IMG/VR virus record: IMGVR_UViG_2534681836_000028
Span: 1-19,941 of that record
Reading direction: 5' to 3' (one strand)
Source of the DNA: a virus
Lineage: Duplodnaviria; Heunggongvirae; Uroviricota; Caudoviricetes
DNA length: 19,941 nt
How positions within the stretch are numbered: the first letter of the stretch is position 1; each line of letters begins with the position of its first letter. The notes under the pieces are model-generated. The model was not told the origin of the DNA, searched no databases, and saw only the letters and a list, made by a program, of their open reading frames with translations. Of this stretch, positions 3,561 through 18,302 are shown piece after piece. Made by a program: the position numbers and the translations under genes.

Positions 3561-3588
3561 GCCGGTTCAGATGAGCCGGCTTTTGTTT
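3561..3588 (+). terminator. Rho-independent terminator after excA-like gene
   Basis: Stem gccggttc / gagccggc with 4-nt loop, followed by ttttgtttg. Confidence 0.4.
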
Positions 3589-3637
3589 GCAACAACACAT
3601 AGCTTATGCCGTATTAAATAACCCCAAGGACCTATTT

Positions 3638-3847: not shown

Positions 3848-3857
3848 CGCCAACAAA

Positions 3858-3889
3858 AAGAGCAGGAAATCCCACACCTGCTCTTATTC
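3858..3889 (+). terminator. Rho-independent terminator after hha-like gene
   Basis: 9-bp stem aagagcagg / cctgctctt, 10-nt loop, then T-rich tail. Confidence 0.35.
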
Positions 3890-4055
3890 ATGAATAAATA
3901 TATCCAATATATTTTAATGCGAAGAAATAATCTCCGTAGAAACCCCTATAAGAAAAATATCATATGGGAGAAAATCGCAATTATCACAGCCAGCGCATTC
4001 ATTATTTTCGCTGTGCTCTGGCATTAATTATTTTCAACACAAAAAGGAAAAAACA

Positions 4056-4232
4056 ATGAATCTGGTAGACGCCTTTGTCAAAAAAGTAATATCCGAGCCA
4101 TATGAAGAATATGGAAAATGGTGGATAGATGTTGAATACATTTCATGGGGTGTTCCCGGGAAAACAAGACTGATGTTTGAGTCAAAGGAGCAGGCACTGG
4201 AAGTTAAAGAAGGGTACAAATTTTTAACGTGA
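4056..4232 (+). CDS. Hypothetical small protein, 58 aa (MNLVDAFVKKVISEPYEEYGKWWIDVEYISWGVPGKTRLMFESKEQALEVKEGYKFLT)
   Basis: ATG 4056 with AAAGGAAA SD; below the 60-aa cutoff of the ORF track; ends at TGA 4230-4232 just before a strong hairpin; convergent with the dinQ-like gene. Confidence 0.4.
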   Translation: MNLVDAFVKKVISEPYEEYGKWWIDVEYISWGVPGKTRLMFESKEQALEVKEGYKFLT

Positions 4233-4247
4233 GATCTCTTTTTGTTA

Positions 4248-4277
4248 AAGGGCAGGAAGCGGTAACTCCCTGCCCTT
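4248..4277. terminator. Hairpin between convergent genes (probable bidirectional terminator)
   Basis: 9-bp stem aagggcagg / cctgccctt with 12-nt loop, lying between the stop of the 58-aa ORF (4232) and the stop of the dinQ-like ORF (4297). Confidence 0.4.
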
Positions 4278-4296
4278 AGTTACGTTTCCGGGCTTA

Positions 4297-4392
4297 TCAG
4301 TCGACAAGTTCCCGGATCAGTTCCAGAACAGCAATCAGCGCGTTTGCAACGGCAACTACTGCCCTGAGAACGATGATTAACAGATTAATCAT
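4297..4392 (-). CDS. DinQ-like type I toxin, 31-aa hydrophobic peptide (MINLLIIVLRAVVAVANALIAVLELIRELVD)
   Basis: C-terminal 31 codons of track ORF 4297-4593; ATG at 4392 preceded by GGAGA with 5-nt spacer; single predicted helix; ALIAVLELIRELV resembles DinQ ALIALLELIRFLL (recalled from memory). An alternative ATG four codons upstream (4404) would give MEKRM... Confidence 0.55.
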   Translation of the reverse strand: MINLLIIVLRAVVAVANALIAVLELIRELVD

Positions 4393-4464
4393 CCGCTTCT
4401 CCATCACTGGAGAAAGAACCCCGTTGTTCGCTCTTACACTGCCTGTCACAACGGTTTCTATAGT

Positions 4465-4500
4465 GTCAGTTATAGACAGTTCTTCTCCGACCAGAGCACC
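4465..4500. repeat. Direct repeat copy 1 (36 nt) in the 5' region of the dinQ-like transcript
   Basis: gtcagttatagacagttcttctccgaccagagcacc; matches 4653-4688 with 2 mismatches. Confidence 0.7.
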
Positions 4501-4639
4501 AAAACCAGCACCACCTGATGTTTTGGCCAGGACTTGCAACCTGTTCTTCCCGCTGAACAATATGTCGGACAGAACATGCCTCAGAGCTGACATGCCGAGT
4601 ATACACTTATCCAGTACTTGCAGAAATATAATTCCAGAC

Positions 4640-4738
4640 GTACTATCTACAAGTCAGTTATAGACAGTTCTTTTCCGACCAGAGCCACCCACTCTGTAAC
4701 GGAACAGTAAAAAACCGACCTCACCAGTCGGTTTTTTT
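4640..4738 (+). ncRNA. Putative AgrB-like trans-antisense sRNA for the dinQ-like toxin
   Basis: Perfect -10 TATAAT at 4627-4632; repeat copy 2 inside; rho-independent terminator (stem aaccgac / gtcggtt, T7 run) at 4713-4738. The RNA would be complementary over about 36 nt to the toxin mRNA leader. Ends are inferred, not mapped. Confidence 0.35.
4653..4690. repeat. Direct repeat copy 2 (within the putative antisense sRNA gene)
   Basis: gtcagttatagacagttcttttccgaccagagccaccc; about 188 bp from copy 1, same orientation. Confidence 0.7.
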
Positions 4739-4891
4739 ACATCTGTTGTTTCTCAAAATCCGCCCGACATGCCCGTCACACCGGGGAAACTCATGCTTTG
4801 AATCAGAACCAACCATCTCAACTTTGCCGTCTCCTGAAAAAACTGGCACATTCAGTTCGATAACTACCCATAAATACAGAGAGAAAATCCG

Positions 4892-5143
4892 ATGTCAGAA
4901 AAGTGGAGTAAAGAATTCGACTCTTGCTTTCAGGTGGGGAGCATAGAAGAAATTGCCGATGCTCTCGAGAAACGCAGCGGAAGCGAGGAAAATGCGTTAG
5001 CCATGCTGGCAATGACAGCCTTCACACTCATGACCCGACGTGGTATCTGCGAAATGCAGAACGTGGCCCCGGATGGCAAAGGCATTCGGCTGGAGCTAAT
5101 CGGCTTCAGGGGAAATGAAACAATACCGGATACGCTTCATTGA
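4892..5143 (+). CDS. rem: Rem-like small prophage protein, 83 aa
   Basis: ORF 4892-5143; size and position (next to hok-relE-relB-ydfV-flxA) match rem of the K-12 Qin prophage; named from gene order and length memory. Confidence 0.5.
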   Translation: MSEKWSKEFDSCFQVGSIEEIADALEKRSGSEENALAMLAMTAFTLMTRRGICEMQNVAPDGKGIRLELIGFRGNETIPDTLH

Positions 5144-5182
5144 AGAAGAAAGGGCGCAATGAGGTCAGCCTTCGCAACAAAG

Positions 5183-5205
5183 CGGCGGCAGAAAACCTGC
5201 CGCCG
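5183..5205. terminator. Bidirectional hairpin terminator between rem and hok
   Basis: 9-bp GC-rich stem cggcggcag / ctgccgccg, 5-nt loop; T-rich on the minus-strand side after hok. Confidence 0.4.
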
Positions 5206-5214
5206 TGTTGCCCG

Positions 5215-5370
5215 TTAACGTTTAACTTCGTAGGCTAACGTTGCCACAAGCACTGTGTTTCCCTGCTGGAGCCGGAATCCGCAAAGCGAATCCCTCACCA
5301 TCCAGACAAAACACAGAATCGTCACACAGACGACGATTAACATCATTAAAAACGTTCGCTGTGGCATCAT
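5215..5370 (-). CDS. Hok-family type I toxin (hokD/relF position), 51 aa
   Basis: Minus-strand translation MMPQRTFLMMLIVVCVTILCFVWMVRDSLCGFRLQQGNTVLVATLAYEVKR: single TM helix then conserved Cys-containing periplasmic tail typical of Hok; not in ORF track (under 60 aa); lies directly downstream of relE as hokD does in K-12. Confidence 0.7.
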   Translation of the reverse strand: MMPQRTFLMMLIVVCVTILCFVWMVRDSLCGFRLQQGNTVLVATLAYEVKR

Positions 5371-5438
5371 AGCCCCTCCATGTCAACGCAAAGCAGAAGT
5401 GTCACCTTCGGTGCGAAACAGAGATGTCATGCTTTGGT

Positions 5439-5726
5439 TCAGAGAATGCGTTTGACCGCCTCGCTATATACTTCCGAGCGTTCTCTTTTCCCAACAGAAA
5501 TCACGAAAACGACAACTTTCTCGTCTATAACCTGGTATACAAGGCGATAGCCCGAAGACCGGAGCTTAATCTTGTAACAATCAGGCATACCACGGAGCTT
5601 GTTTGCTTCAATCCGGGGTGACTCAAGTACTTCAACCAGCTTCTTTTTCAACTGTTCACGTACCGTCGAGCCCAGCTTTCGCCATTCCTTTAGTGCCCGC
5701 TCGTCAAAATCCAGAAAATACGCCAT
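5439..5726 (-). CDS. relE: RelE mRNA-interferase toxin, 95 aa
   Basis: ORF 5439-5726; RelE/ParE-family sequence; start overlaps relB stop (ATGA at 5726). Confidence 0.9.
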   Translation of the reverse strand: MAYFLDFDERALKEWRKLGSTVREQLKKKLVEVLESPRIEANKLRGMPDCYKIKLRSSGYRLVYQVIDEKVVVFVISVGKRERSEVYSEAVKRIL

Positions 5727-5965
5727 CAGAGTTCATCCAGCGTCACACGTACTGGCTTAGGATTACGAAGCCGTTCTTTCACTATCTCCACAAGTTCAGC
5801 ATCTTCATCACTCAGGAGTGTCTGTTTGAACGGCAAGCGTTCATTGTCAGCGATATACTCGAGCATGAGACGAAGCGCTTCAGAAGGAGTTACACCCATT
5901 TTTTCAAGCGCGGCGTAAGAACGCGCTTTAAGTTCATCGTCAATACGCAGGTTAATGCTACCCAT
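5726..5965 (-). CDS. relB: RelB antitoxin, 79 aa
   Basis: ORF 5726-5965; ribbon-helix-helix N-terminus MGSINLRIDDELK; upstream operator palindrome matches K-12 relO. Confidence 0.9.
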   Translation of the reverse strand: MGSINLRIDDELKARSYAALEKMGVTPSEALRLMLEYIADNERLPFKQTLLSDEDAELVEIVKERLRNPKPVRVTLDEL

Positions 5966-5976
5966 GTCTTACACCT

Positions 5977-6002
5977 CTTGTAATTACAAATGTCATTACA
6001 AG
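5977..6002 (-). promoter_or_regulatory. relO operator / relBE promoter region
   Basis: cttgtaattacaaatgtcattacaag: 12-bp perfect palindrome ttgtaattacaa plus a second attacaag half-site, immediately upstream of relB (minus strand). Confidence 0.6.
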
Positions 6003-6295
6003 TATCGCACTACAACATGCTTAGGGCAAGTCACGAAGGGAGTCAGAAAGTAGTCGTAAGAACGGTGATCACTGTCCGCTTTGTGCCAGGAGCAGCCACT
6101 GCTAAGTCCATCCTGTATTGTGCAGGTCAGCTCGTTTTTAAAGAGTCCGGCCATCATCTTACTGGTACAGACACCATATACTTTGTGACGGTCAGGCTAC
6201 ATATGCACAACTCAACTTATTCATCTATTTTTTGCTTTAGCATGTCAGTGTTGCTTTCTCGTCGGCGGGTGAGCGGTGACCTGACCTGTCGATAA
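5990..6295 (+). CDS. YdfV-like hypothetical protein, 101 aa (doubtful)
   Basis: ORF 5990-6295 divergent from relB; K-12 Qin annotates a ydfV of the same size and position; start overlaps relO and no clear SD is seen, so it may not be expressed. Confidence 0.3.
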   Translation: MSLQVSHYNMLRASHEGSQKVVVRTVITVRFVPGAATAKSILYCAGQLVFKESGHHLTGTDTIYFVTVRLHMHNSTYSSIFCFSMSVLLSRRRVSGDLTCR

Positions 6296-6447
6296 AGGAA
6301 CGTAGCACGTTTTATGCAACACCCGCATGCGGCAGAAAATTATTGCCGAACGTTTACCCCTGTCAACAAGCTTTACTTTCTGAGGCGCGCCAGCCCGCGA
6401 GGAAAACAATCTGAACATCAAACAATTAATGACACAAGAAATACGAT

Positions 6448-6474
6448 TAAAGATTTTTTTGTGCATACCGATAG
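6448..6474 (+). promoter_or_regulatory. Sigma-28 (FliA) class 3 flagellar-type promoter upstream of flxA
   Basis: taaagatt-N11-accgatag versus consensus TAAAGTTT-N11-GCCGATAA, about 24 nt upstream of the flxA ATG. Confidence 0.45.
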
Positions 6475-6497
6475 TGCTTTTTTAAAAGGAGAAATCT

Positions 6498-6830
6498 ATG
6501 TCTGTCACAATTCAGGGAAATACCTCAACCGTTATTTCAAACAACTCCGCCCCGGAAGGAACATCAGAAATAGCCAAAATCACAAGACAAATTCAGGTGC
6601 TGACTGAAAAGCTTGGGAAAATCTCATCGGAAGAGGGGATGACGACACAGCAGAAAAAAGAAATAGCTGCATTGGTACAGAAGCAAATTGAAAGCCTCTG
6701 GGCTCAACTGGAGCAGTTGTTAAGGCAGCAGGCAGAGAAAAAGAATGAAGACGCGACAGTTCAGCCTGATAAAAAAGAAGAGAAAAAAGACGATACAAAT
6801 ACCGCTGGCACCATTGATATTTACGTCTAA
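6498..6830 (+). CDS. flxA: FlxA-like protein (FliA-regulated), 110 aa
   Basis: ORF 6498-6830 with AAAGGAGAAATCT SD; MSVTIQGNTSTVISNN... recognised from memory as FlxA; coiled-coil, Lys/Glu-rich C-terminus. Confidence 0.75.
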   Translation: MSVTIQGNTSTVISNNSAPEGTSEIAKITRQIQVLTEKLGKISSEEGMTTQQKKEIAALVQKQIESLWAQLEQLLRQQAEKKNEDATVQPDKKEEKKDDTNTAGTIDIYV

Positions 6831-6844
6831 GTGACAGCCGTATT

Positions 6845-6867
6845 GTGGCCCTCATCGGGCCACTTTT
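6845..6867 (+). terminator. Rho-independent terminator after flxA
   Basis: Stem gtggccc / gggccac, 5-nt loop, then tttt. Confidence 0.45.
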
Positions 6868-7029
6868 CGCCATCAGCCTTTTCTTTAAAGACATATTATC
6901 TTTGTATCATTTCTGATAGTTAACATTACAAGATATAAGTAATGGACGCACTCCCAATTAGTCTATTTAAATCGCCACGAGTTTAACTGACAACCCATGA
7001 TCAATTATAGAATTGCAACTATTTCTGTA

Positions 7030-8680
7030 GTCACTTTTGTGGGGACAGTCCACAAAACTGCCAACTTCCGCTTCTTGCTCTTAGCGGACATTAGCATAGG
7101 CTATTTGCCATAACGCCTCATTACGCGCACCGCCCAGACTGACTCAGCGCGTTTCTGGCATATCCCCGGTAAAACAAGTAACAAACCACCCGAAAATGAA
7201 CACCAGAAACGCGACTTAAGAATCTACCCTATGAATGGATATGCACTCAACCGAATCGATCTTGGTTTCAATCTTTTTTATCGGGATCAGGCTTCTTTTT
7301 AGGTAACTTCGGGGGCTTAACTTGCTGATGACTTTGCGTTCGGCGCGTAAGCCAGGGATGGTCAGCTTTAGGTTTAACATAGTATTTTGAGCGTAAATCA
7401 ATACGGGCATTATCCACTCGTTCATGGACACTCTTTTCATCATCCAGTGGTATAGGCTCCGGGCCATCAACATACTTTTCCCAGCCCAGCGCTTTCCCGT
7501 CATACAGAACGTTAATTTCACCGTCAAAGTTCTCGCATACAGTAACAACCGAATGCCTAAGTCGATATCCCCGGCCCTCACTGCGTACCTGAAACGCACT
7601 GCTTTTGTACTGGAAAGTGAGATTTTTAGACAGAACGCGCTTCGCCTGTAGGCTGAAGATATAACCCAGTTCCTCTTCAGAATGGTGCACATCAAGATGA
7701 GCATTATCAGTAGTACGAGGCGACGTAGCGAACCGGTTGTTATAGGCTTCAATAAAGGTCGGCAACCATGCATTTGCTGTTTCAATATCACTGATATTCT
7801 GAAGCCGCATTTCTTTGACCAGCCTGTCCTGTAGTGTCTGATTGGCGCGCTCTACCCGCCCTTTTGCCTGCGGGCTGTTGGCATGGATTGGCTCGATGCC
7901 CAGTGTCTTTATCGCACGAGTGAACTGGGTCAGCTCACCTTCCCGCTCTGGGTTATTTACCCTGAATATACTGTGTCTATCAGAGTAGAGAGCGAGCGGT
8001 ACGCCATGATCATTAAGGTAACCCCGGAGGGTTTCCATGTAAGCCCGGGTTGTTTCAGCAGGCACAAAACGCAACGCCATCAACGCACTGGTGGCATCAT
8101 CAATGAAAACGATCAGTGTACATCTGGGGCCTCGATTTTCAAACCAGTCATGAGGTGAGCCATCAATCTGGATCAGTTCACCGTAAGATGGTCGTCGCAT
8201 GCGGCGTTGATATATACGGGCAATTTTACGACGGCGTTCACGCCATACCCCCTCTTCTATCATCCACTTTCTGAGAGTTTCAACGGATAAAGATAAACCG
8301 TGTATCTCACGCAATTTTTCGCACGCAAACGTAGGTCCAAAATCAGCGTAACGGCCTTTGAGGAGTGAAATTACTGTTGCTCTGAATTCAGTAGAAAAGG
8401 AATTATTAGGACGCTTTCCACGTCGGGGGGAAACCAGACCAGAAGGCCCTTCATTTCTATACCGTTGCACCAGACGTTTAACCTGCCGAATAGAAATGCC
8501 AATGCGTGCCGCAGCTTGTTCCTGAGTAATATGTCGATTAATTGACTCCTGAATAATCTGAAGTCGGTGGAGTTCCTTATGACTCATCGTAACAGTCTCT
8601 TTGATCATGAAAAATCCCCCAGAGAATTGTCTGGGGACATTTTAGAATGGTTCAAAGGGGACATTACAGCTTGGTGTTAA
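7030..8680 (-). mobile_element. Insertion sequence, ends not resolved (about 1.6-1.7 kb)
   Basis: Single 446-aa DDE transposase ORF with non-coding flanks; 23-nt hairpin at 7035-7057 and repeated GGGGACA motifs at 7041 and 8633-8665 may mark the termini. Boundaries are approximate. Confidence 0.45.
7268..8608 (-). CDS. DDE transposase (integrase-core/rve type, N-terminal HTH), 446 aa; ISNCY(IS1202-group)- or IS481-like
   Basis: ORF 7268-8608; HTH AARIGISIRQVKRLV; catalytic-core motifs QIDGSPHDW, FIDDATS, AKGRVERANQTL; no IstB-like partner, so IS21 is unlikely; basic Lys/Pro-rich C-terminal tail. Confidence 0.85.
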   Translation of the reverse strand: MIKETVTMSHKELHRLQIIQESINRHITQEQAAARIGISIRQVKRLVQRYRNEGPSGLVSPRRGKRPNNSFSTEFRATVISLLKGRYADFGPTFACEKLREIHGLSLSVETLRKWMIEEGVWRERRRKIARIYQRRMRRPSYGELIQIDGSPHDWFENRGPRCTLIVFIDDATSALMALRFVPAETTRAYMETLRGYLNDHGVPLALYSDRHSIFRVNNPEREGELTQFTRAIKTLGIEPIHANSPQAKGRVERANQTLQDRLVKEMRLQNISDIETANAWLPTFIEAYNNRFATSPRTTDNAHLDVHHSEEELGYIFSLQAKRVLSKNLTFQYKSSAFQVRSEGRGYRLRHSVVTVCENFDGEINVLYDGKALGWEKYVDGPEPIPLDDEKSVHERVDNARIDLRSKYYVKPKADHPWLTRRTQSHQQVKPPKLPKKKPDPDKKD

Positions 8681-9358
8681 CAATAGCCTGCTTCTCCTTG
8701 CCTTTCGGCACGTAAGAGGCTAACCTACATATGTCTAGCATGAAATTGGCCTCAGATTAATGTTAAGCGTCTTGCAGGACGCGTAATGTTAACTGGGGCT
8801 TTTCTCTATCTGCCGTTGGTGTTCATGCCCGAGGCAGATAGCCTCAAGCACCCGCAGCCATTCTACTTAACTACCGTTACCTCGCCAATGTGAAATCAGT
8901 CAGAAAGGCGATCCATAAGAACAATAGCAAGACAATAAATCGCCATTACAGCCGTAATAGCCAGCGCACATTTGAGAACCAGCACCACAACCTCCTGTAT
9001 TGGACGTAGACCAGTCCTGATGAATATGAGGCTGTCTCGTCAGTGATTCAATACAACTATTGGGTATAGTTTCTCTGATTTTTTCTGTGGAAATGGGGCA
9101 CAACCACTAGTCACCACCAGCACTTCTTTTAATACGCAAAGTCCGACACAAGCTAACCTTCTAGTCCGCTTTGAGCGAAAAACAGCCATAATTTAGTGCC
9201 ACGTATATAATGATAGAGCTATTCAAGCTAGCAATTCACATGTAAAAATTCAGAGGGTAGAAGCACATAGTTATAAATGTTGGCTCCATCGACAAATTGC
9301 GGTCTCAAGTACATTTATTAATGTTGCCCCCGCATTAACAAATCATCAAGGTGACGAC

Positions 9359-11146
9359 ATGGACGATATTAATATCAGCCTCGACGAACTTAACACTATT
9401 GATTTATCCCCCTTAATCCAGAGTAAGCTGCCAGTTACCTGCTTTGATATCACAAAGTATCTTTCTAGCCTAGGTGATGGAAGAGCGGAGATAAGACTGC
9501 TAACCCATATTTGCGGTTTTCACTTTCGTCCCGAAAATCCACAGGTACCATTTGGTCCGTGCTTTCAAAGCAGCCAAGGTAGATCTGCAATTCCGGATGA
9601 CATTAACGGGTTGTCGCTGGAGGTACTTTCTCAATTTTGCCCGACGATAGAGCTACCCGAACTTCAAGCTCGTATTGCTGATACACTTTGGGTTCGTAAA
9701 ATTGGTGGAATCCGTTTTCCTTTGCTGGCAGTCCGTGCTTATTATGCGTCCAGTATAGCTATTATGACATCGCAAGGGACGTGGGTTAGTGCTTTAGAAC
9801 GCCTAGAGCGTGCGCTTAGGCTGTGTTGTTTTTTTCGAAAGCATACTGATTTCAGGGATGAATTTGATCAGCTTTCGGCACATCTACTAGCAGAGTATGA
9901 ACGTACCAGAGAACAAGGCGATTCACCTTATCCGCTGCGACTCCTGCAACTCGATATCGACTGTAAAGTGAGTGAGCCATCTTTTATTGCCCAGGAACTC
10001 CTGTTTCTGACAAAAAACTATCTGGCTCAAAAATTATTTTCATTTGCCGTCGATGCCTGTAAAACCGCAATCCCGATTGCGAATAGGTGCTGTGACAGAG
10101 ATACACAGTTTGAATTCTGGCGGCTTCTTGCCGATACACATCTGGAAGAGTCAAAATTCCAAGATGGCGGTATGATTTCGGCAGCCTGCATGCAGAATGC
10201 TATTGAAGCACTGGCTAATATTCCAGGAACCCGAATAGAACGTCTTGCGCTGTATGAAGAAATGCGTGATTACCAAATCGAATCCCGTCACCAGATGTCT
10301 ATCCTTCAGTCTCCCCCTCAAGATATTAGTGAGATTGTCCATCAAGCCAAGAGTCGGGTAGTCGGAAGAGATTTGTTTGATATGGTTTTCAGACTTGCGA
10401 TGCTGGTCTGTCGGCCAACCAGCATTGAGAGACTTAAGGCTCAAGCAATAGAACAAAAGGCCAACAGCATAGCTTGGATGTTTGGATCAACACATATTGA
10501 TCATGAGGGAATGACACTTGCTCGCATACCCGCAGGATTGGGGATTGATGATGCAAATGGGGCAGTTATTTGGCCCATAATGATGACGAGAATGCGTATC
10601 GACCATGAGTTGGCAGTAGCTGGGCAAATTATTCCTGCTACAGATGAGATCACAATGAAATATCCAATCTCGGAGGCGTTTTTTCGCGATATGTTCATCA
10701 ATCATCCCTTCATCCCGTTTGGGCATGAAGAGTTTTTCATCAAGGGTATGGTTTGCGGTTTCAATGGAGATTTTATGACGGCATGCCACGTGTTGATTCC
10801 CCAGATCGAAAATAGTCTGAGATATGTGGCTAAAATTAAAGGTGAGGAACCATCGCAGCTTCACGGGGACGGTTCGCAAGAGCGAAATGGACTCAAGGGA
10901 TTACTAGATAATCCACTGATTATTGAAGCTTTCGGCGTAGACATAATTGGCAATCTTCAGGCCTTACTGGTAGATAAAATCTATGGTGATTTACGAAATC
11001 AACTAGCTCACGGATATGTGCCTGCCGGTTACTACAATCAACCTCCCTGCATTTTTGCATGGTGGCTTGTATTGCACATTCTAATGAACCCTACGGCGAG
11101 ATACTGGCAAGCCACTTATGGCCAAGAGAGTGAGGCTCAGACTTAA
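9359..11146 (+). CDS. Solitary 595-aa cytoplasmic protein with C-terminal HEPN-like Rx4HG motif; candidate abortive-infection/defence effector (possibly DUF4209-like)
   Basis: ATG 9359 with AAGGTGA SD; long uninterrupted ORF; motif DLRNQLAHG (nt about 10994-11014) fits the HEPN R-x4-6-H signature; no TM segment, no Walker motif; flanked by an IS and about 750 bp of non-coding DNA; convergent with phage replication genes. Confidence 0.8.
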   Translation: MDDINISLDELNTIDLSPLIQSKLPVTCFDITKYLSSLGDGRAEIRLLTHICGFHFRPENPQVPFGPCFQSSQGRSAIPDDINGLSLEVLSQFCPTIELPELQARIADTLWVRKIGGIRFPLLAVRAYYASSIAIMTSQGTWVSALERLERALRLCCFFRKHTDFRDEFDQLSAHLLAEYERTREQGDSPYPLRLLQLDIDCKVSEPSFIAQELLFLTKNYLAQKLFSFAVDACKTAIPIANRCCDRDTQFEFWRLLADTHLEESKFQDGGMISAACMQNAIEALANIPGTRIERLALYEEMRDYQIESRHQMSILQSPPQDISEIVHQAKSRVVGRDLFDMVFRLAMLVCRPTSIERLKAQAIEQKANSIAWMFGSTHIDHEGMTLARIPAGLGIDDANGAVIWPIMMTRMRIDHELAVAGQIIPATDEITMKYPISEAFFRDMFINHPFIPFGHEEFFIKGMVCGFNGDFMTACHVLIPQIENSLRYVAKIKGEEPSQLHGDGSQERNGLKGLLDNPLIIEAFGVDIIGNLQALLVDKIYGDLRNQLAHGYVPAGYYNQPPCIFAWWLVLHILMNPTARYWQATYGQESEAQT

Positions 11147-11243
11147 AGTGAATAAGTTTACGAAGTTGGCACTTCCGGATGCATGTCCATATGAGTTGAG
11201 GCGATTTGGTTAATAAGGTTGAGTGCTGCTGAAATTATTCGAT

Positions 11244-11267
11244 GTCCGCTTTTGGCACAAAGCGGAC
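11244..11267. terminator. Hairpin in the convergent intergenic region (possible terminator)
   Basis: Perfect 9-bp stem gtccgcttt / aaagcggac with 6-nt loop; weak U-tract, so terminator function is uncertain. Confidence 0.3.
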
Positions 11268-11364
11268 AACCACGCCAGATCTACCCTGTGCCATGAAAAA
11301 TGAGAATGTCAATTCACTCCTGAACTAATGCTTTTTAATCTAGTAACGTCTAAAATACCTAACA

Positions 11365-11766
11365 TTATCCCTGATAAAATGCCAGTATGCGCTGCATAAC
11401 TTCACTCATCCGGCACTCGCGACAGATTATGTTTAGGCGACTGTCGTAGCGACGTATTTCTCCATCAGGTAACGACCAGATAAGGTCCGGATCAACCACA
11501 GCTGTTTTCTTCACCTTTGCCCTCGAGAGTTTTTTGCGGGCGTTTTGCCAGTCCTTACGCGCCTGTTCAGACGGGAATAACCCGTAGCCGGAGTTGTATA
11601 CATCGCCACTGGCAACCAGCTCTCTGGCAAGAACGCTCATCAGATATCTAGTCGCACCTGTTTTAGCTTCCAGTTGCCGTAACGTCTCACGACCGCTCTG
11701 GCGCACGAGTTCCACCACCTGCCCTTTAATTTTTTCCCGCTCTTCTTGTGTAAAAACTTTTGCCAC
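11365..11766 (-). CDS. Phage hypothetical protein, 133 aa (downstream of replication initiator)
   Basis: ORF 11365-11766 with GTG start preceded by AAGGGGGA; basic, no ATPase motifs (not a DnaC/P-like helicase loader). Confidence 0.55.
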   Translation of the reverse strand: MAKVFTQEEREKIKGQVVELVRQSGRETLRQLEAKTGATRYLMSVLARELVASGDVYNSGYGLFPSEQARKDWQNARKKLSRAKVKKTAVVDPDLIWSLPDGEIRRYDSRLNIICRECRMSEVMQRILAFYQG

Positions 11767-11806
11767 AAGTCCCCCTTAAAATTACCTCATGACCTGAAAT
11801 CAAAAC

Positions 11807-12772
11807 TTATCCTCTGAAACCAGGCGGAATTTCTGTATTCGGTTCAGAAATATGATTAACACAACGCTGTACAGGTGAACGCCCCAGGCGGATGACCAGT
11901 TCGTCCCATTTTTCGCGGAGCTTTGACGGGCTCATGATGTTTTTTACCCAGAATGGATCCCGCTGTACCCGACCAAACATTTCACAAATTTGTCTGTGGC
12001 TTCTGCCATCCAGCATCCGCATTGTGCGCACATCATTGGCCCAGACAGTCCAGTTAGGCTCTTTTGGTCGCATGATCTCGCCATCATCACTGGCGGCCTG
12101 TTCGTAGAGACCCACGATCCGCCCCCATATCCACTGCGCACACGCCAGATCCTCCTGGCTACCCCACTGGCGTTTTTTCGCACTAAACACAACTGCGCCA
12201 GGGTGCCGGATTAAAAAATCCTGTTCAGCCGTCTGCGGGTCCGGTTGCGAAGCTTCCGGACGAAAAGTGTTTTTATTCTCTGTAGTAATCTCTGTTGTAT
12301 TCTCTGTAGGATCATCGGGCCATTTTGACCCGATGACATTGGGTCGTTTTGAACCAATGGAGCGTTTCATTTTGACCTCTTCCATCGTGTCATTTTGACC
12401 TGATGGAGCGGCGCATTTTGAACCGATGGATTCGCTCAATTTGCCATCATCTAAAAGCTCGCTCCCATAGTTAATCGTGTAGAAATTGGTCATATCGCGC
12501 TTTGATTTATTGAGCTTTTCACAACGCAAAAGCCCCAGCGTTTTCAGACTTGCAAACGCGCGCTTTAACGTTGACTCTGACCAGAATGGGAACTGTTCCA
12601 GCCATTGTTCCGTTGTGTTGTAAATCCAGCGAACACCATCACATTCCATGCCGGAATTGGTATCTCTCAACCAGTAATGCAACTGCTGCAACACAATGGC
12701 TTCATTTAAGCCAATCTTCATCGCAAGCTGTGTGTTTATAACCAGTGGGCGTTCAGCAAAAAGAAGGCTCAT
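11807..12772 (-). CDS. Lambdoid replication initiator (O-like / YdaU-like replisome organiser) containing the iteron origin
   Basis: Track ORF 11807-12826 begins at a TTG; the ATG at 12772 (MSLLFAERPLVINTQLAMKIGLNEAIVLQQLHYWL, winged-helix N-domain) is the more likely start; internal repeats SIGSK x3 are encoded by DNA iterons; overlaps the upstream ydaT-like gene. Confidence 0.8.
   Translation of the reverse strand: MSLLFAERPLVINTQLAMKIGLNEAIVLQQLHYWLRDTNSGMECDGVRWIYNTTEQWLEQFPFWSESTLKRAFASLKTLGLLRCEKLNKSKRDMTNFYTINYGSELLDDGKLSESIGSKCAAPSGQNDTMEEVKMKRSIGSKRPNVIGSKWPDDPTENTTEITTENKNTFRPEASQPDPQTAEQDFLIRHPGAVVFSAKKRQWGSQEDLACAQWIWGRIVGLYEQAASDDGEIMRPKEPNWTVWANDVRTMRMLDGRSHRQICEMFGRVQRDPFWVKNIMSPSKLREKWDELVIRLGRSPVQRCVNHISEPNTEIPPGFRG
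12270..12455. repeat. Phage origin of replication: five to six 23-24-bp-spaced iterons plus adjacent 12-bp repeats
   Basis: Iterons cattttga(c/a)c-N-gatgg starting at about 12321, 12345, 12368, 12391, 12414 (degenerate sixth at 12437); three attctctgtag-type repeats at about 12275-12309; all inside the O-like gene, as in lambda ori. Confidence 0.65.
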
Positions 12773-13274
12773 AATTCCATCCAGCTTTTTGTTGGTATTG
12801 CTGTCGATACGCAAGTTTGAAAGCAATTGCTTTTTCTATAAGTTCGTCAGTTTCACGATCCACTACGGCAGGATCAGCAAAAAGCAGTCCGGACTCCACC
12901 ACATCGCCATATTCTTTGTTTAACCCGGCGATCATGTACGTGATGCTTTTTCCGTCACTAATTTCACGATACAACCTGAAATCATTAATCCGGATAGCCT
13001 CCATAATTGCAGGCACTAGCGCCGTGAACTTTTCACGCTTATCCCTGGTGTCGATAGCCTTCCAGCGTTCGAATATCTTCACTCGATTAACGCCAAGCGC
13101 TCGCTGATCAACCGCGCCACCTTCATCTGTGACACGCTGAACATCGATGTTCGGGCGCTCTTTCAAAGCCCAGAATGCTTCAGTGATTAATATCGTCGCC
13201 TGCTCCTGTGTCATTCCTGGTCGACATATCCAGGCATCCAGAGCCTCACGAGCCTGTTCAGGAGTGATTTTCAT
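12753..13274 (-). CDS. YdaT-like protein (cII-position regulator/toxin-family), 173 aa
   Basis: ORF 12753-13274; start overlaps stop of the cro-like gene; motifs FERWK and ALVPAIMEAI parallel Rac YdaT (recalled). Confidence 0.6.
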   Translation of the reverse strand: MKITPEQAREALDAWICRPGMTQEQATILITEAFWALKERPNIDVQRVTDEGGAVDQRALGVNRVKIFERWKAIDTRDKREKFTALVPAIMEAIRINDFRLYREISDGKSITYMIAGLNKEYGDVVESGLLFADPAVVDRETDELIEKAIAFKLAYRQQYQQKAGWNYEPSFC

Positions 13275-13485
13275 TGTTCAACCGCCCCGCCCGCTTCGTC
13301 TTACGATATTCGTCATAAACCTTGGGATCATACAGAAGCTCCCCGCCAGATGCCTCCTGTAGACGCATCGCGCGACCTTCAGGAACCAGTATCCCCCAAG
13401 CAGCAACACTTGCCAGTCTCACTCCTGCGGCATTGGCAAGCTTTGTTTTGCTGCCAAAAAAAGTAATTGCGTCAACTTTAAGCAT
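13258..13485 (-). CDS. dicC: Cro-like regulator (DicC / YdaS family), about 75 aa
   Basis: Track ORF 13258-13488 starts at TTG; ATG at 13485 gives MLKVDAITFFGSKTKLANAAGVRLASV...; HTH; divergent from the dicA-like repressor. Confidence 0.75.
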   Translation of the reverse strand: MLKVDAITFFGSKTKLANAAGVRLASVAAWGILVPEGRAMRLQEASGGELLYDPKVYDEYRKTKRAGRLNNENHS

Positions 13486-13498
13486 CAAAGCCCCCTCT

Positions 13499-13516
13499 TG
13501 TTAGACTTTTCTAACA
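13499..13516. promoter_or_regulatory. Operator palindrome O1 in the dicC-dicA divergent intergenic region
   Basis: tgttaga-cttt-tctaaca (7-bp arms, 4-bp spacer). Confidence 0.5.
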
Positions 13517-13565
13517 TTATTGTGCGCGGGATATCTAAGTCAAGAAAAATTAGAATTACCTAACT

Positions 13566-13973
13566 ATGGATACAAGAACCCTAGGCCAGCGAGTTCTGGC
13601 GCGACGAAAAGAATTACGCTTAACACAACGAGAAGCTGCGCGCCTCGCTGGAGTTGCTCACGTCACAATTTCACAATGGGAAAGAGACGAAACCCAGCCA
13701 GTCGGAAAACGATTGTTTGCTTTAGCGGATGCTCTGAAGTGCTCACCTACATGGCTAATGTTTGGTGACGAAGACAAGGCACCAGTGCCTGCACAAGAAC
13801 TTCATGTGGAAACAGAGCTAACTCCCAACCACAAAGAATTGATCGAATTATTCGATGCTCTTCCATCTTCCGAGCAGGAAGCCTTGCTGTCTGAAATGCG
13901 CGCAAGAGTAGAAAACTTCAACAAACTCTTCGAAGAAATGCTTAAAGCGCGTAAAAATAAATCAATAAAATAA
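13566..13973 (+). CDS. dicA: DicA-like XRE-family HTH repressor (CI analogue without peptidase domain), 135 aa
   Basis: ORF 13566-13973; HTH LTQREAARLAGVAHVTISQWERDETQP; same length as K-12 DicA and closely similar to it (recalled). Confidence 0.85.
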   Translation: MDTRTLGQRVLARRKELRLTQREAARLAGVAHVTISQWERDETQPVGKRLFALADALKCSPTWLMFGDEDKAPVPAQELHVETELTPNHKELIELFDALPSSEQEALLSEMRARVENFNKLFEEMLKARKNKSIK

Positions 13974-14005
13974 CATTCTTTTCAAGTGATTAGTTGCGCC
14001 CACTC

Positions 14006-14031
14006 TTTTTGTTAGACCAATCTAACAAAAA
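14006..14031. promoter_or_regulatory. Operator palindrome O2 upstream of the ydfA-dicF-dicB operon promoter
   Basis: tttttgttaga-ccaa-tctaacaaaaa (11-bp arms); immediately followed by candidate -35 TTGCCT, 17 bp, -10 TAAATT. Confidence 0.5.
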
Positions 14032-14141
14032 ACACTTGCCTATCATGTTAGGTTATTCTAAATTACTTTCCATCAAGACACCGCACGGTGTTCTCAGCAA
14101 ACAGTTCCGCTACCCCGGCGTTAAGGGGAAATGAGGTCAGC

Positions 14142-14297
14142 ATGGATACTATCGATCTTGGCAACAGCGAATCTCTGGTATGTGGCGTGTTCCCCAACCA
14201 GGACGGCACGTTCACCGCGATGACGTATACCAAAAGCAAAACGTTTAAAACCGAAAATGGTGCCCGTCGCTGGCTGGAAAGAAACTCAGGTGAGTGA
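14142..14297 (+). CDS. ydfA: YdfA-like small protein, 51 aa
   Basis: ATG 14142 with GAGGT SD (track ORF 14088-14297 starts earlier, in frame); MDTIDLGNSESLVCGVFPNQDGTFTAMTYTKSKTFKTENGARRWLERNSGE. Confidence 0.7.
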   Translation: MDTIDLGNSESLVCGVFPNQDGTFTAMTYTKSKTFKTENGARRWLERNSGE

Positions 14298-14298
14298 T

Positions 14299-14874
14299 AT
14301 GGATTTCGACACAATCATGGAAAAGGCTTACGAAGAATACTTCGAAGGCCTTGCCGAAGGCGAAGAAGCTCTCAGCTTCAGTGAGTTTAAACAGGCACTC
14401 AGAATAAGAATGTGCTCTCACAATGACGCGGAGCACAAATATGAGAAGCAAAATCAGACCGCAGAAAATTTTGTTCTGGAACCCGGAGAAACGCTTTTCA
14501 AAATTCCCGTTACGTGCCCCATTTGCGGTTTTACATCAGAAGAACTTGACGACTCCTGTAACAATCAGGAAACAACCAAGTATGTCGAAGATGATACCGA
14601 GTGCGCACGAAGAACGATTATATCCACGAGTCCAAACTCCAGGGCCAATAAATCTCACTTTGAGAGGGTGATTAATCCACTCCCCCAAACCAATAAAAAA
14701 GATGCCGGAGGACAAAAAACCCAATGGAACAACGGGATATCTGTCAAAAAAAGACGTTCCATTAAAGACAAACAACGCAGCGCCAACAACTGTAAGCGCT
14801 TTATACCAGTAATCAATTTTCATGTTCTTAAGCGGATTTATTGGTGGTTGCGACATTGCTTAATGAATCCTTAA
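14299..14874 (+). CDS. YdfB/YdfC-like protein, 191 aa, with putative Cys-cluster (CPICGF ... DDSC ... TEC)
   Basis: ATG 14299 with AGGTGAG SD, one nt after the ydfA stop; single long ORF where K-12 Qin has two short genes (from memory). Confidence 0.5.
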   Translation: MDFDTIMEKAYEEYFEGLAEGEEALSFSEFKQALRIRMCSHNDAEHKYEKQNQTAENFVLEPGETLFKIPVTCPICGFTSEELDDSCNNQETTKYVEDDTECARRTIISTSPNSRANKSHFERVINPLPQTNKKDAGGQKTQWNNGISVKKRRSIKDKQRSANNCKRFIPVINFHVLKRIYWWLRHCLMNP

Positions 14875-15133
14875 AACTGTGGTGATTTTAAGGATACCAC
14901 CTCGCCTGACGTGGTTAAAAGCAGGCACACAACACGAAAGCGCACGGCGAAGTTCGTCTCACTGTACGGTGTCGTTAAATTTAATTCGACCGTGCGCTTC
15001 CGGTTGTGGCAACCCGCAAAATGGCGCGGCGGTAAGTATGGCGGGGTTATTCCTTCCCCGTTGAGGACACCGGGTTGTCAGGTTGACCATACGCTTAAGT
15101 GACAACCCCGCTGCAACGCCCTCTGTTATCAAT

Positions 15134-15186
15134 TTTCTGGTGACGTTTGGCGGTATCAGTTTTACTCCGTGACTGCTCTGCCGCCG
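15134..15186 (+). ncRNA. dicF: DicF sRNA (antisense inhibitor of ftsZ translation)
   Basis: tttctggtgacgtttggcggtatcagttttactccgtgactgctctgccgccg matches the remembered 53-nt K-12 DicF nearly exactly; followed by a T-run; position between ydfB/C and dicB as in Qin. Confidence 0.75.
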
Positions 15187-15360
15187 TTTTTAAAGTGAAT
15201 TTTGTTATGCGGTGAATGCGGCTAAGCGCACGCGGAACAGTTAAAACCAAAAACAGTGTTATGGGTGGATTCTCTGTATCCGACGTTAATTGTTAACTGG
15301 TTAACGTCACCTGGAGGCACCAGGCACTGCATCACAAAATTTATTGTTGAGGACGCGATA

Positions 15361-15549
15361 ATGAAAACGTTATTACCAAACGTTAATACGTCTGAAGGTT
15401 GTTTTGAAATTGGTGTCACTATCAGTAACCCTGTATTTACTGAAGATGCCATTAACAAGAGAAAACAAGAACGGGAGCTATTAAATAAAATATGCATTGT
15501 TTCAATGCTGGCTCGTTTACGTCTGATGCCAAAAGGATGTGCACAATGA
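15361..15549 (+). CDS. dicB: DicB cell-division inhibitor, 62 aa
   Basis: ATG 15361 with GAGGA SD (track ORF starts upstream at GTG 15256); MKTLLPNVNTSEGCFEIGV...; size and sequence as DicB (recalled). Confidence 0.75.
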   Translation: MKTLLPNVNTSEGCFEIGVTISNPVFTEDAINKRKQERELLNKICIVSMLARLRLMPKGCAQ

Positions 15550-15737
15550 ATTCAGCATTTGCGCTTGTTCTGACAGTTTTTCTTGTTTCCGGAGTGCCAG
15601 TTGATATTGCAGTCAGTGTTCACAGGACAATGCAGGAGTGTATGACTGCAGCAACCGAACAGAAAATTCCCGGTAACTGTTACCCGGTCGATAAAGTTAT
15701 TAACCAGGATAATATCGAAATCCCGGCAGGTCTTTAA
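15546..15737 (+). CDS. ydfD: YdfD-like small membrane/lysis protein, 63 aa
   Basis: ATG 15546 overlapping the dicB stop (ATGA), AAGGATG SD; N-terminal hydrophobic helix FALVLTVFLVSGVPV. Confidence 0.65.
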   Translation: MNSAFALVLTVFLVSGVPVDIAVSVHRTMQECMTAATEQKIPGNCYPVDKVINQDNIEIPAGL

Positions 15738-15830
15738 AACAGTTCCGTAATAAATATCCGGTTTCATTCTTATATGCCAGCAATGGCAGGGATTTGTTCA
15801 TCCTTAAATCTGTCATGAGGTTAAAACAAA

Positions 15831-18302
15831 ATGAGTAAAGTCTTTATTTGCGCCGCTATTCCTGACGAACTGGCAACAAGGGAAGAAGGCGCTGTGGCTG
15901 TAGCCACAGCCATTGAAGCTGGCGACGAACGCCGTGCTCGAGCAAAATTTCACTGGCAATTCCTGGAACATTATCCGGCTGCTCAGGACTGCGCTTATAA
16001 ATTTATTGTCTGCGAGGATAAACCTGGCATACCCCGCCCTGCCCTCGATTCATGGGATGCTGAATATATGCAGGAAAACCGCTGGGATGAGGAGTCTGCT
16101 TCTTTTGTCCCGAATGAGACTGAATCCGATCCGATGAACGTCACTTTTGACAAGCTGGCCCCTGAAGTACAGAACGCTGTCATGGTTAAGTTCGACACAT
16201 GTGAAAACATCACCGTTGATATGGTTATTAGCGCACAGGAATTGTTGCAGGAAGACATGGCAACATTCGACGGACATATCGTTGAAGCGTTGATGAAAAT
16301 GCCAGAAGTTAACGCCATGTATCCGGAGCTTAAGTTGCACGCCATTGGGTGGGTTAAGCATAAATGTATTCCTGGTGCTAAATGGCCCGAAATTCAGGCA
16401 GAGATGCGCATCTGGAAAAAACGTCGCGAAGGTGAACGCAAGGAAACCGGAAAATACACGTCTGTTGTTGATCTCGCACGCGCCAGAGCCAATCAACCGT
16501 ACACTGAAAATTCAACAGGAAAAATCAGCCCGGTCATTGCTGCCATTCATCGCGAATACAAGCAGACATGGAAAACACTGGATGACGAACTGGCCTACGC
16601 TCTCTGGCCTGGTGATGTGGATGCCGGAAACATTGACGGCAGCATCCATCGCTGGGCAAAAAAAGAAGTTATCGACAACGACCGCGAAGACTGGAAGCGT
16701 ATCTCGGCATCAATGCGCAAACAGCCTGATGCCCTTCGCTACGACCGCCAGACTATTTTTGGCCTTGTCCGTGAGCGTCCGATCGACATTCACAAAGATC
16801 CCGTAGCACTGAACAAATATATCTGCGAATACCTGACGACAAAGGGCGTGTTTGAGAATGAAGAAACAGACCTGGGCACTGTTGATGTTCTCCAGTCATC
16901 AGAAACACAAACTGATGCAGTGGAAACTGAGGTATCTGATATCCCAAAAAATGAAACCGCGCCGGAAGCTGAACCATCTGTAGAGCGTGAGGGGCCGTTC
17001 TATTTCCTCTTCGCAGATAAGGACGGAGAAAAATACGGTCGCGCAAACAAACTTTCTGGTCTGGATAAGGCACTGGCTGCTGGCGCCACTGAAATCACAA
17101 AAGAAGAATATTTTGCCCGAAAAAATGGCACATACACGGGCTTACCGCAAAATGTAGATACCGCTGAAGATTCAGAACAACCAGAGCCGATAAAAGTTAC
17201 CGCTGACGAAGTAAACAAAATTATGCAGGCAGCCAATATCAGCCAGCCTGACGCTGATAAGTTGCTTGCTGCATCACGTGGTGAATTTGTTGAAGGGATT
17301 AGTGACCCGAATGATCCGAAATGGGTTAAGGGGATCCAGACCCGCGATTCTGTGAACCAGAACCAGCATGAATCGGAACGGAACTACCAAAAAGCGGAAC
17401 AAAACAGTCCAAATGCGTTACAAAACGAGCCAGTAACGAAACAGCCTGAACCAGTAGCGCAACAGGAAGTGGAAAAAGTCTGCACCGCCTGCGGTCAGAC
17501 CGGCGGCGGCAACTGCCCTGATTGTGGCGCGGTGATGGGCGACGCAACATACCAGGAAACATTCGATGAAGAGTATCAGGTTGAAGTTCAGGAAGATGAT
17601 CCGGAGGAAATGCAAGGCGCTGAACATCCACACAAGGAGAACACTGACGGCAATCAGCATCACGATAGCGATAATGAAACTGGCGAGACGGCAGATCACT
17701 CAATTAAGGTGAACGGTCATCACGAAATCACATCCACCAGCAGGACGTGTGACCATCTAATGATCGACCTTGAAACCATGGGAAAAAATCCTGATGCCCC
17801 GATCATCTCAATAGGTGCAATATTTTTCGATCCGCAAACCGGAGATATGGGACCGGAATTTAGTAAGACTATCGATCTGGAAACTGCTGGCGGAGTCATT
17901 GATCGGGACACCATTAAATGGTGGCTTAAGCAATCACGCGAAGCGCAATCTGCCATTATGACCGATGAAATCCCGTTAGATGATGCACTGTTACAATTGC
18001 GGGAATTTATCGACGAAAACTCCGGTGAATTTTTTGTTCAGGTTTGGGGAAATGGAGCCAACTTCGACAACACGATTTTGCGCCGTTCATACGAACGGCA
18101 GGGGATCCCCTGCCCGTGGCGTTACTACAACGATCGCGATGTACGCACAATCGTTGAGCTGGGGAAAGCCATAGACTTCGATGCCAGAACGGCTATTCCA
18201 TTCGAAGGTGAGCGCCATAATGCACTTGATGACGCCCGTTACCAGGCAAAATACGTTTCAGTTATCTGGCAAAAACTGATCCCGAGTCAGGCTGATTCTT
18301 AA
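15831..18302 (+). CDS. RecE-like (exodeoxyribonuclease VIII-like) protein with C-terminal DEDDh 3'-5' exonuclease domain, 823 aa
   Basis: ORF 15831-18302; central region (LLAASRGEFVEGISDPNDPKWVKGIQTRD ... CGQTGGGNCPDCGAVMGDATYQETFDEE) matches remembered Rac RecE; C-terminus carries Exo I (MIDLETMG), Exo II (WGNGANFDNTIL) and Exo III (HNALDDARYQAKY) motifs. Confidence 0.85.
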   Translation: MSKVFICAAIPDELATREEGAVAVATAIEAGDERRARAKFHWQFLEHYPAAQDCAYKFIVCEDKPGIPRPALDSWDAEYMQENRWDEESASFVPNETESDPMNVTFDKLAPEVQNAVMVKFDTCENITVDMVISAQELLQEDMATFDGHIVEALMKMPEVNAMYPELKLHAIGWVKHKCIPGAKWPEIQAEMRIWKKRREGERKETGKYTSVVDLARARANQPYTENSTGKISPVIAAIHREYKQTWKTLDDELAYALWPGDVDAGNIDGSIHRWAKKEVIDNDREDWKRISASMRKQPDALRYDRQTIFGLVRERPIDIHKDPVALNKYICEYLTTKGVFENEETDLGTVDVLQSSETQTDAVETEVSDIPKNETAPEAEPSVEREGPFYFLFADKDGEKYGRANKLSGLDKALAAGATEITKEEYFARKNGTYTGLPQNVDTAEDSEQPEPIKVTADEVNKIMQAANISQPDADKLLAASRGEFVEGISDPNDPKWVKGIQTRDSVNQNQHESERNYQKAEQNSPNALQNEPVTKQPEPVAQQEVEKVCTACGQTGGGNCPDCGAVMGDATYQETFDEEYQVEVQEDDPEEMQGAEHPHKENTDGNQHHDSDNETGETADHSIKVNGHHEITSTSRTCDHLMIDLETMGKNPDAPIISIGAIFFDPQTGDMGPEFSKTIDLETAGGVIDRDTIKWWLKQSREAQSAIMTDEIPLDDALLQLREFIDENSGEFFVQVWGNGANFDNTILRRSYERQGIPCPWRYYNDRDVRTIVELGKAIDFDARTAIPFEGERHNALDDARYQAKYVSVIWQKLIPSQADS

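Follow-up and report, generated by a model that had tools for sequence, protein, structure and literature searches.

A DUF7380/DUF4209 HEPN protein carried as a cargo cassette in a Qin-like prophage is a candidate single-gene abortive-infection effector

HEPN ribonucleases work as dimers that unite two Rx4-6H motifs. This pairing, with its composite Rx4-6H site, is restated in the description of HepS (Sargen et al., Nature 2026; PMC13043305), a solo HEPN protein of the Salmonella prophage Gifsy-1 that is encoded in an accessory slot beside the replication genes, is constitutively expressed and non-toxic, and is activated by the tail-tip (J) proteins of incoming siphoviruses, the protein, a tetramer, then cleaving the anticodon loops of tRNAs (PMC13043305). 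Tha, a HEPN defence protein of S. aureus prophages, is likewise reported to be activated by a structural (tail) protein of the incoming phage (PMC11087260). A further family, DUF4209/C6orf70 (ERMARD), was classed as catalytically active in the HEPN survey of Anantharaman et al. (2013; PMC3710099), where a conserved R/H motif is the hallmark of catalytically active HEPN domains; its bacterial members occur as TPR fusions and in operons related to restriction-modification, and its eukaryotic members have a transmembrane segment, are predicted proteins of the endoplasmic reticulum (ER) and are predicted to act in ER-associated RNA degradation. Here, we analyse a 19,941-nucleotide stretch of viral DNA (positions 1 to 19,941 of IMG/VR record IMGVR_UViG_2534681836_000028, hereafter the window) and, within it, a 595-aa protein (67 kDa, pI 5.3) encoded from an ATG at 9359..11146 (+), which on balance we favour as a single-protein HEPN ribonuclease carried as mobile-element cargo, most likely an anti-phage abortive-infection effector.

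The protein combines an N-terminal DUF7380 domain and a helical solenoid, the latter a proposed sensor or regulatory part, with a C-terminal HEPN domain that contains two conserved polar motifs:

9368..9856 (+), DUF7380 domain, residues 4-166 (Pfam PF24098, E = 3.4e-34, 118.6 bits against a cut-off of 27)
9608..10294 (+), TPR-like alpha-helical solenoid, approximately residues 84-312, 11 helices
10568..11143 (+), C-terminal HEPN domain, approximately residues 404-595
10793..10822 (+), HEPN helix motif L-I-P-Q-I-E-N-S-L-R, residues 479-488
10988..11014 (+), catalytic-type HEPN motif D-L-R-N-Q-L-A-H-G, residues 544-552

The original prediction, made from the letters of the DNA, had seen in DLRNQLAHG the R-x4-6-H signature of HEPN RNases and had been reminded of DUF4209 by the size of the protein and this C-terminal motif, and both suspicions are borne out. 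Residues 484-573 match DUF4209 (PF13910) with 33.9 bits against a cut-off of 22.3, covering 87 of the 89 profile positions, and all members of a 35-sequence alignment, which spans homologues down to 24% identity, give Pfam matches to both DUF7380 and DUF4209. Within DUF7380, ARxADxxW (residues 104-111) and ERALRL (residues 150-155) stand out as conserved motifs, and nine of the 13 invariant columns in the alignment fall within the last 135 residues. R546, H551 and G552 are invariant in 35/35 members (motif [DN]-L-R-N-x-x-[AS]-H-G), as are Q482, E484, S486 and R488 in the same alignment (motif L-[IV]-P-Q-x-E-N-S-x-R), the latter motif loosening to QxE/DxSxR-like forms in more distant members. 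Another 146 representatives all keep the R-x4-H-[G/A] pattern too, with RN in 128 of them and RH in 14.

An AlphaFold2 model of the full-length protein, built as a monomer (as were all structure models here) with the family alignment, is confidently all-helical (pLDDT 89.6, pTM 0.70), and residues 395-595 modelled alone reach a pLDDT of 91.1 and a pTM of 0.86. Structure matches of this second model are almost exclusively to HEPN domains, with the following scores:

HEPN toxins of HEPN-MNT pairs, 8.6, 8.4 and 7.7
AF0298, 8.6, and YutE, 8.4
Csm6, 7.7-6.1
the HEPN domain of AbiA, 7.3
MtlR, 5.9
RnlA, 5.5, and LsoA, 5.1
Las1, 5.2
AbiV, 4.6

The R-x4-6-H motif lies at the start of the last core helix, as expected for the HEPN superfamily, and the model is an all-alpha up-down bundle that is superposable on solved HEPN domains; as modelled, then, the C-terminal domain has the HEPN fold. 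Pfam and fold searches, which might have placed the protein in a non-nuclease family, favour the HEPN assignment instead, since the matches of the 395-595 model are of this kind and the Rx4H motif is conserved. Searches with the 595-aa protein found no solved relative in the PDB by sequence or profile and no matching NCBIfam model, and the PHROGs search matched two families only, both of unknown function.

Some HEPN domains serve as non-catalytic binding or regulatory modules, examples being MtlR and the nucleotidyltransferase substrate-binding HEPN proteins, and a protein of this type would be a prophage scaffold or regulator, a role in keeping with TPR-like solenoids, which are typical protein-protein scaffolds. 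We regard this as very improbable for the window protein, where the R, H and G are kept in 35/35 and 146/146 sequences, mostly in the R-N form, a conservation that is the catalytic hallmark (PMC3710099), and where the second polar motif, on the neighbouring helix, is conserved as well. By analogy with catalytic HEPN proteins, the 595-aa protein is instead probably an active RNase.

The family to which it belongs is large. A profile search returned 7,394 cluster representatives at 50% identity, 2,802 of them at E <= 1e-30, and the top 150 are all full-length proteins of ~600 aa; a word-indexed search likewise gave more than 150 homologues, which form a uniform set. With this many profile-matching representatives, and with dN/dS values of 0.11-0.20 for the gene against five alleles, the reading frame is not due to chance, and sequence comparison indicates that the family is under purifying selection. 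The protein itself is 100% identical to WP_000340969.1 (RefSeq, E. coli ATCC 25922, 'DUF4209 domain-containing protein') and matches the PADLOC family PDC-S39 over nearly its full length (PDLC05012, E = 2.1e-102, residues 43-581 on positions 54-602 of a 615-position profile; the second PDC-S39 profile, PDLC05011, gives E = 7.3e-102). It also shows the fusion of bacterial DUF4209 to TPR-type repeats that is listed in Table 1 of Anantharaman et al. (2013). E. coli DUF4209 proteins are listed by DefensePredictor as 'predicted novel defense gene', with log-odds of 4.3 for a 595-aa protein and of 7.4-8.1 for relatives of 602 and 617 aa (PMC13092281). The view of the original prediction that the protein is undescribed and belongs to no named system must therefore be given up, as it falls in the C6orf70/DUF4209 HEPN family (PMC3710099), matches PADLOC PDC-S39 (E = 2e-102) and has E. 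coli relatives that are DefensePredictor candidates (PMC13092281). The family is a known and already catalogued defence candidate; what is new here, the cassette structure and the definition of its slot, is modest. The literature that we found on the family comprises the 2013 HEPN survey, PADLOC tallies and the DefensePredictor prediction tables, PDC-S39 appearing solely as PADLOC calls within strain surveys.

Several simple properties of the gene had been called correctly from the start, namely a long open reading frame with a good Shine-Dalgarno sequence, a convergent region downstream, and a soluble product that lacks both a transmembrane segment and a P-loop. No Walker A or P-loop motif was found in the 595-aa protein, and the highest 19-residue hydropathy window (1.75, residues 520-538) lies within conserved short helices of the HEPN domain; as this sole borderline hydrophobic stretch sits in short C-terminal helices that are not membrane-spanning, the protein looks soluble. 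The two local features concerned are:

9348..9354 (+), Shine-Dalgarno sequence AAGGTGA, 4 nt 5' of the ATG
11365..11766 (-), DUF977 gene, which closes the prophage replication module and is convergent with the cassette described below, given as context only

The gene lies in a 2.1-kb segment whose ends can be placed by comparison with other genomes. BLAST boundaries in window coordinates are 9166-11267 for a Klebsiella plasmid (L004) and 9164-11258 for two IMG/VR prophage contigs (L017 and L019), and the conserved flanks of the slot stop at 9185 and restart at 11242 in comparison with E. coli NCTC9699. The elements of the segment are:

~9164..11267 (+), mobile cargo cassette, 2.1 kb
9164..9187 (+), left boundary hairpin, degenerate in the window, GTCCGCTTTGAGCGAAAAACAGCC
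9206..9211 (+), TATAAT, a perfect -10 hexamer that each of the three cassette contexts conserves, the putative promoter of the cassette itself
11244..11267 (+), right boundary hairpin, GTCCGCTTT-TGGCAC-AAAGCGGAC, -14.7 kcal/mol, z = -3.8

The left hairpin is intact in the Klebsiella plasmid copy, where it reads GGCCGCTTT-GAGCGA-AAAGCGGCC (-17.2 kcal/mol; L004 6999-7022), and the two boundary hairpins share nearly the same 9-bp stem (GNCCGCTTT / AAAGCGGNC) around different 6-nt loops. Homology between unrelated contexts ends exactly at both hairpins, and the alternative cargo of NCTC9699 has the same flanking elements. The hairpins may act as terminators that insulate the unit, or recombination that exchanges cargo may favour this site. 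Because the ends coincide in three contexts, and given the hairpins and the conserved TATAAT, we take the gene to be an insulated, self-contained cassette of the 'moron' type. It reads against the prophage replication operon, from a slot between the replication module and a hok/sok locus. The flanks of the cassette (9164-11267) are non-coding, with no second open reading frame of at least 60 aa, and the cassette region contains no tandem repeats and no Rfam family. In another IMG/VR contig (L016), a 1.3-kb insertion at 5647-6978 lies ~45 bp upstream of the DUF4209 start codon (window-equivalent 9311-9316) and may be an insertion sequence (IS) that disrupts or replaces the promoter.

Over positions 8683-19,941 the window and the ATCC 25922 Qin-like prophage are 99.75% identical, the identity rising to 100% over 8683-11600, which includes the gene. 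The neighbourhood upstream of the cassette contains an IS and a small RNA locus:

7268..8608 (-), ISEsa1 (IS1202-like) transposase, 446 aa, intact, context only
8682..8853 (-), orphan sok antisense RNA/hok leader (Rfam RF01794, 106.9 bits, full-length), outside the cassette

The ISEsa1 element ends near 8682, and its ends are approximate because no terminal inverted repeats of it were found in the window. The original prediction had supposed that the gene was inserted together with this IS. The cassette is present in ATCC 25922, however, where the IS is absent, and NCTC9699 combines the IS with another cargo gene and lacks the cassette, so that the two are independent insertions and the idea that the IS brought the gene was rejected. 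The gene had also been described as monocistronic and isolated by about 750 bp of non-coding DNA, and here the first half stands and the second does not, the supposedly empty upstream region being made up of the IS end, the sok/hok leader and the 5' region of the cassette. The short 'YdfW' annotated in pDEC9B-1 and NCTC9699 is an IS remnant, since it matches the C-terminal end of the 446-aa ISEsa1 transposase reading frame, and K-12 ydfW/intK presumably correspond to the same end. In ATCC 25922 the sok/hok leader is contiguous with an intact hokD, and in the window and NCTC9699 a relBE-ydfV-flxA-ISEsa1 block parts the hok(D) coding sequence from its leader; this separation fits the K-12 arrangement, in which hokD (relF) forms the third gene in the relBE operon.

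NCTC9699 has the same flanks as the window (hokD, relE, relB, ydfV, flxA-like, ydfW and ISEsa1 on one side, DUF977 on the other), and between them (window-equivalent 9185-11242) an unrelated 269-aa gene takes the place of the cassette, which identifies this interval as a variable cargo slot. The comparisons with NCTC9699 and ATCC 25922 thus agree with the earlier picture of a monocistronic cargo gene at a prophage accessory slot. The 269-aa gene (L012 6410-7219, window-equivalent 9186-11241) has the same orientation as the cassette and is annotated 'chaperonin'; it gave no PADLOC match and may represent a further cargo or defence candidate that awaits characterisation.

Among 5,426 complete E. 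coli genomes the cassette is found in 153 (2.8%), always on the chromosome, and 149 of these copies are at least 99% identical. In genomes H55, H66 and H71 the gene, otherwise 99.9% identical, goes by the annotation 'DUF7380 domain-containing protein' alone or covers just 86% of the query, which suggests that these copies are frameshifted or truncated with loss of the HEPN end. Outside E. coli, IncFIB/FII plasmids of K. pneumoniae have window positions 9166-11267 at 96.6% identity and nothing else of the window, the cassette there adjoining a group II intron, an IS110 element and an antirestriction gene, and the two prophage contigs L017 and L019 have 9164-11258 at 97% in yet another context. 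In both of these contigs the immediate neighbour of the cassette is a ThsB-type TIR gene (229 aa; PADLOC ThsB1, E = 1.8e-128), divergent and ~470 bp upstream of it, and no ThsA was noticed among the scanned neighbours:

L017 2214-2900 (-), ThsB-type TIR gene, PADLOC ThsB1
L019 6687-7373 (-), ThsB-type TIR gene, PADLOC ThsB1

In all, 34 IMG/VR contigs encode relatives, these two among them. A distant, 643-aa relative (24% identity, PDC-S39 E = 8.5e-85) occupies the gpA-gpQ interval of a P2-like phage, the tin/old hotspot, and in an Enterobacter prophage a 39%-identical relative fills the lambdoid slot bounded by the Q antiterminator and the holin gene. In one relative locus from IMG/VR the next gene is PDC-S31, and the pooled neighbours of 16 viral loci include AbiLi, AriA, PD-Lambda-2_C, PDC-S66 and type II methyltransferases, together with common phage genes; the pooled scan treated 143 open reading frames as one pseudo-alignment and so yields counts and no locations, ThsB and PDC-S31 being the only neighbours that were located. 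The earlier reading of the gene as defence cargo is supported in that relatives recur in other known defence or moron hotspots, sometimes beside defence genes.

This distribution bears on whether the protein might rather be a nuclease that serves the cell in stress responses or RNA quality control, in the manner of ERMARD/C6orf70, Ire1 or Las1, and has no part in defence. Such a role would suit a large family under purifying selection that is shared with eukaryotes, where ER-associated RNA degradation is predicted (PMC3710099), and several bacterial copies do lie among housekeeping genes. It sits poorly with a presence in 2.8% of complete E. coli genomes, a patchy distribution, with the movement of an identical cassette between prophages and plasmids of different genera, and with the recurrence of relatives in phage accessory hotspots, and we consider it improbable.

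No conserved partner gene was found next to the homologues, whose neighbours differ in every context examined, and from this we conclude that the unit is a single gene. A hidden partner was considered and rejected, there being no tandem repeats and no Rfam family inside the cassette and no conserved neighbour outside it. The same observations bear on the proposal that the HEPN RNase is an addiction or competition toxin, stabilising the prophage or plasmid or excluding rivals instead of acting against viruses. The toxin would then be restrained by an antitoxin that has escaped recognition, be it a small RNA, a small peptide or the N-terminal half of the protein itself. The slot region is indeed dense in toxin-antitoxin loci (hok/sok, relBE and the DinQ-like dqlB/AgrB), and homologues occur near a HigA-like dnstrm_HI1420 gene in Pseudomonas and near a PIN gene in a cyanobacterium. 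Still, there is no conserved adjacent gene in any context, no MNT partner, and neither tandem repeats nor structured RNA families within the cassette, and the solo chromosomal copies in non-mobile islets need no stabilising. We think this unlikely, if a shade less so than a cellular nuclease, and it partly overlaps the abortive-infection explanation, as the line between addiction and abortive-infection toxins is thin. All three alternatives rank below the reading of the protein as an abortive-infection RNase.

Anti-phage defence is probably the function of the 595-aa protein, and to it we attach, with considerably more hesitation and by analogy with HepS, Tha, ApeA and other HEPN enzymes, a specific model in which a solenoid sensor controls abortive RNA cleavage. 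For a host to tolerate a HEPN protein that has no partner, the protein must, we infer, stay inactive until triggered. HepS is precisely a case of this kind, and this consideration, together with the HepS and Tha precedents, leads us to propose a sensor and auto-inhibitor. The lysogen would express the protein from the putative promoter of the cassette itself, and two HEPN domains would come together in a composite Rx4H active site. The N-terminal DUF7380/TPR-like two-thirds, acting as sensor and auto-inhibitor, would keep this site inactive. Upon infection, a phage-made protein or another cue would bind the solenoid/DUF7380 part and free the HEPN nuclease, which would then cut tRNA, mRNA or rRNA, so that translation would halt and the infected cell would yield no phage. 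A bolder proposal, which we hold to be rather unlikely, is that DUF7380/TPR-like/HEPN proteins are a widespread one-protein immune receptor (~7,400 clusters at 50% identity) and the bacterial ancestor of ERMARD, in which the N-terminal two-thirds directly recognise a phage protein and switch on the C-terminal RNase, and that the hairpins could mark a mechanism for swapping cargo between prophage and plasmid slots.

A number of points weigh against abortive infection as the function. Analogy with other HEPN systems is the source of the proposed dimerisation, auto-inhibition, trigger and RNA target. The cassette promoter is putative, its evidence in the sequence being the -10 match, for which there is no good -35 element and where a consensus promoter scan called no promoter. 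PADLOC matches were obtained for just two of 20 individually scanned neighbours at viral loci, and the survey of these neighbours is a sample and not an enrichment statistic against background. Many chromosomal homologues, as in V. cholerae, P. trivialis and a cyanobacterium, are found in small islets surrounded by housekeeping genes, where any defence-like neighbours are weak ones. The PDC-S39 label and the DefensePredictor score are predictions, DUF4209 proteins are absent from the DefensePredictor table of tested systems (PMC13092281), and in the searchable literature we found no experimental report on the bacterial DUF4209/DUF7380/PDC-S39 family.

The window as a whole is a plasmid-prophage composite, in which an IncI1 transfer region (1 to ~5364) is joined to the Qin-like prophage (5364-19941), the junction lying at the 5' end of the coding sequence of a plasmid-type hok. 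The IncI1 part contains traX, traY, excA, hha, dqlB/AgrB and this hok gene (5215-5370, -), the DinQ-like type I toxin gene dqlB and the AgrB antisense RNA (Rfam RF02891) being located at 4297-4392 (-) and 4654-4740 (+). The Qin-like part contains relBE, flxA, replication and immunity genes, the small RNA DicF (RF00039; 15135-15186, +), dicB, an exonuclease gene, xis and int. Small toxin-antitoxin loci are unusually numerous in the window, which has two of the hok type as well as relBE and dqlB/AgrB. Of the prophage part, IncI1 plasmids (pDEC9B-1, for example) have only 5364-8709, and the whole arrangement was found in no complete RefSeq E. coli genome; integration of a plasmid, a cointegrate or a join made in assembly could account for the composite.

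Were phage defence confirmed, a large family of unknown function, reaching over ~7,400 clusters in Proteobacteria, cyanobacteria and temperate phages, would become a validated single-gene immune system, and a tractable one, as the 2.1-kb cassette with its own expression signals is present in the quality-control strain ATCC 25922 and R546, H551 and E484 can be mutated. Human ERMARD/C6orf70, which is discussed in brain-malformation genetics, would become more accessible to functional study as well, and the result, if the immune-receptor proposal were true, would add one more immune module common to bacteria and eukaryotes. The payoff is moderate, because single-protein prophage HEPN systems of abortive infection are already established (HepS, Tha and ApeA) and the family has been flagged by two prediction resources.

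Compared with these systems, the window protein differs from the HEPN-MNT and RnlA/LsoA toxins in that these need an adjacent antitoxin gene (MNT, RnlB or LsoB), and no such cognate gene adjoins the window gene or is conserved among its homologues. ApeA (Gao et al. 2020) and the lactococcal Abi HEPN proteins (AbiV, the C-terminal domain of AbiJ and the HEPN domain of AbiA) have unrelated N-terminal domains; the protein matches neither the PADLOC ApeA profile nor the Pfam HEPN_Apea and ApeA_NTD1 profiles, and the PADLOC and Pfam models of ApeA, AbiJ, AbiV and AbiD gave no match at E <= 1. With Tha it shares being a prophage-encoded HEPN protein, the trigger of Tha reportedly being an incoming phage structural protein (PMC11087260); Tha belongs to another host and family, with no sequence or profile relation detected between the two proteins. 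The likeness to HepS is closer, both being single-gene prophage HEPN proteins with a canonical Rx4H motif and no partner or inhibitor gene, in a lambdoid accessory slot beside the replication genes. HepS, however, is a small solo HEPN protein, its authors having excluded homologues that exceed 250 aa or have extra domains (PMC13043305), and at 595 aa, with DUF7380 and a TPR-like region, the window protein belongs to another HEPN family; a common family was rejected on size and architecture. The tetramer, the J trigger and tRNA anticodon cleavage are features described for HepS, and the shared placement is a common lifestyle, not family membership. Membership lies with DUF4209/C6orf70, equivalent to PDC-S39, as seen in the Pfam match above cut-off, the near full-length PDC-S39 match, the Rx4H motif and the TPR-like fusion. 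From the bacterial members of this family, whose label is that of a 'candidate', the protein shows no structural difference, and from eukaryotic C6orf70, with its transmembrane segment, it differs in appearing soluble. Within that family, and by analogy with the established single-protein systems, it would work like HepS, Tha or ApeA.

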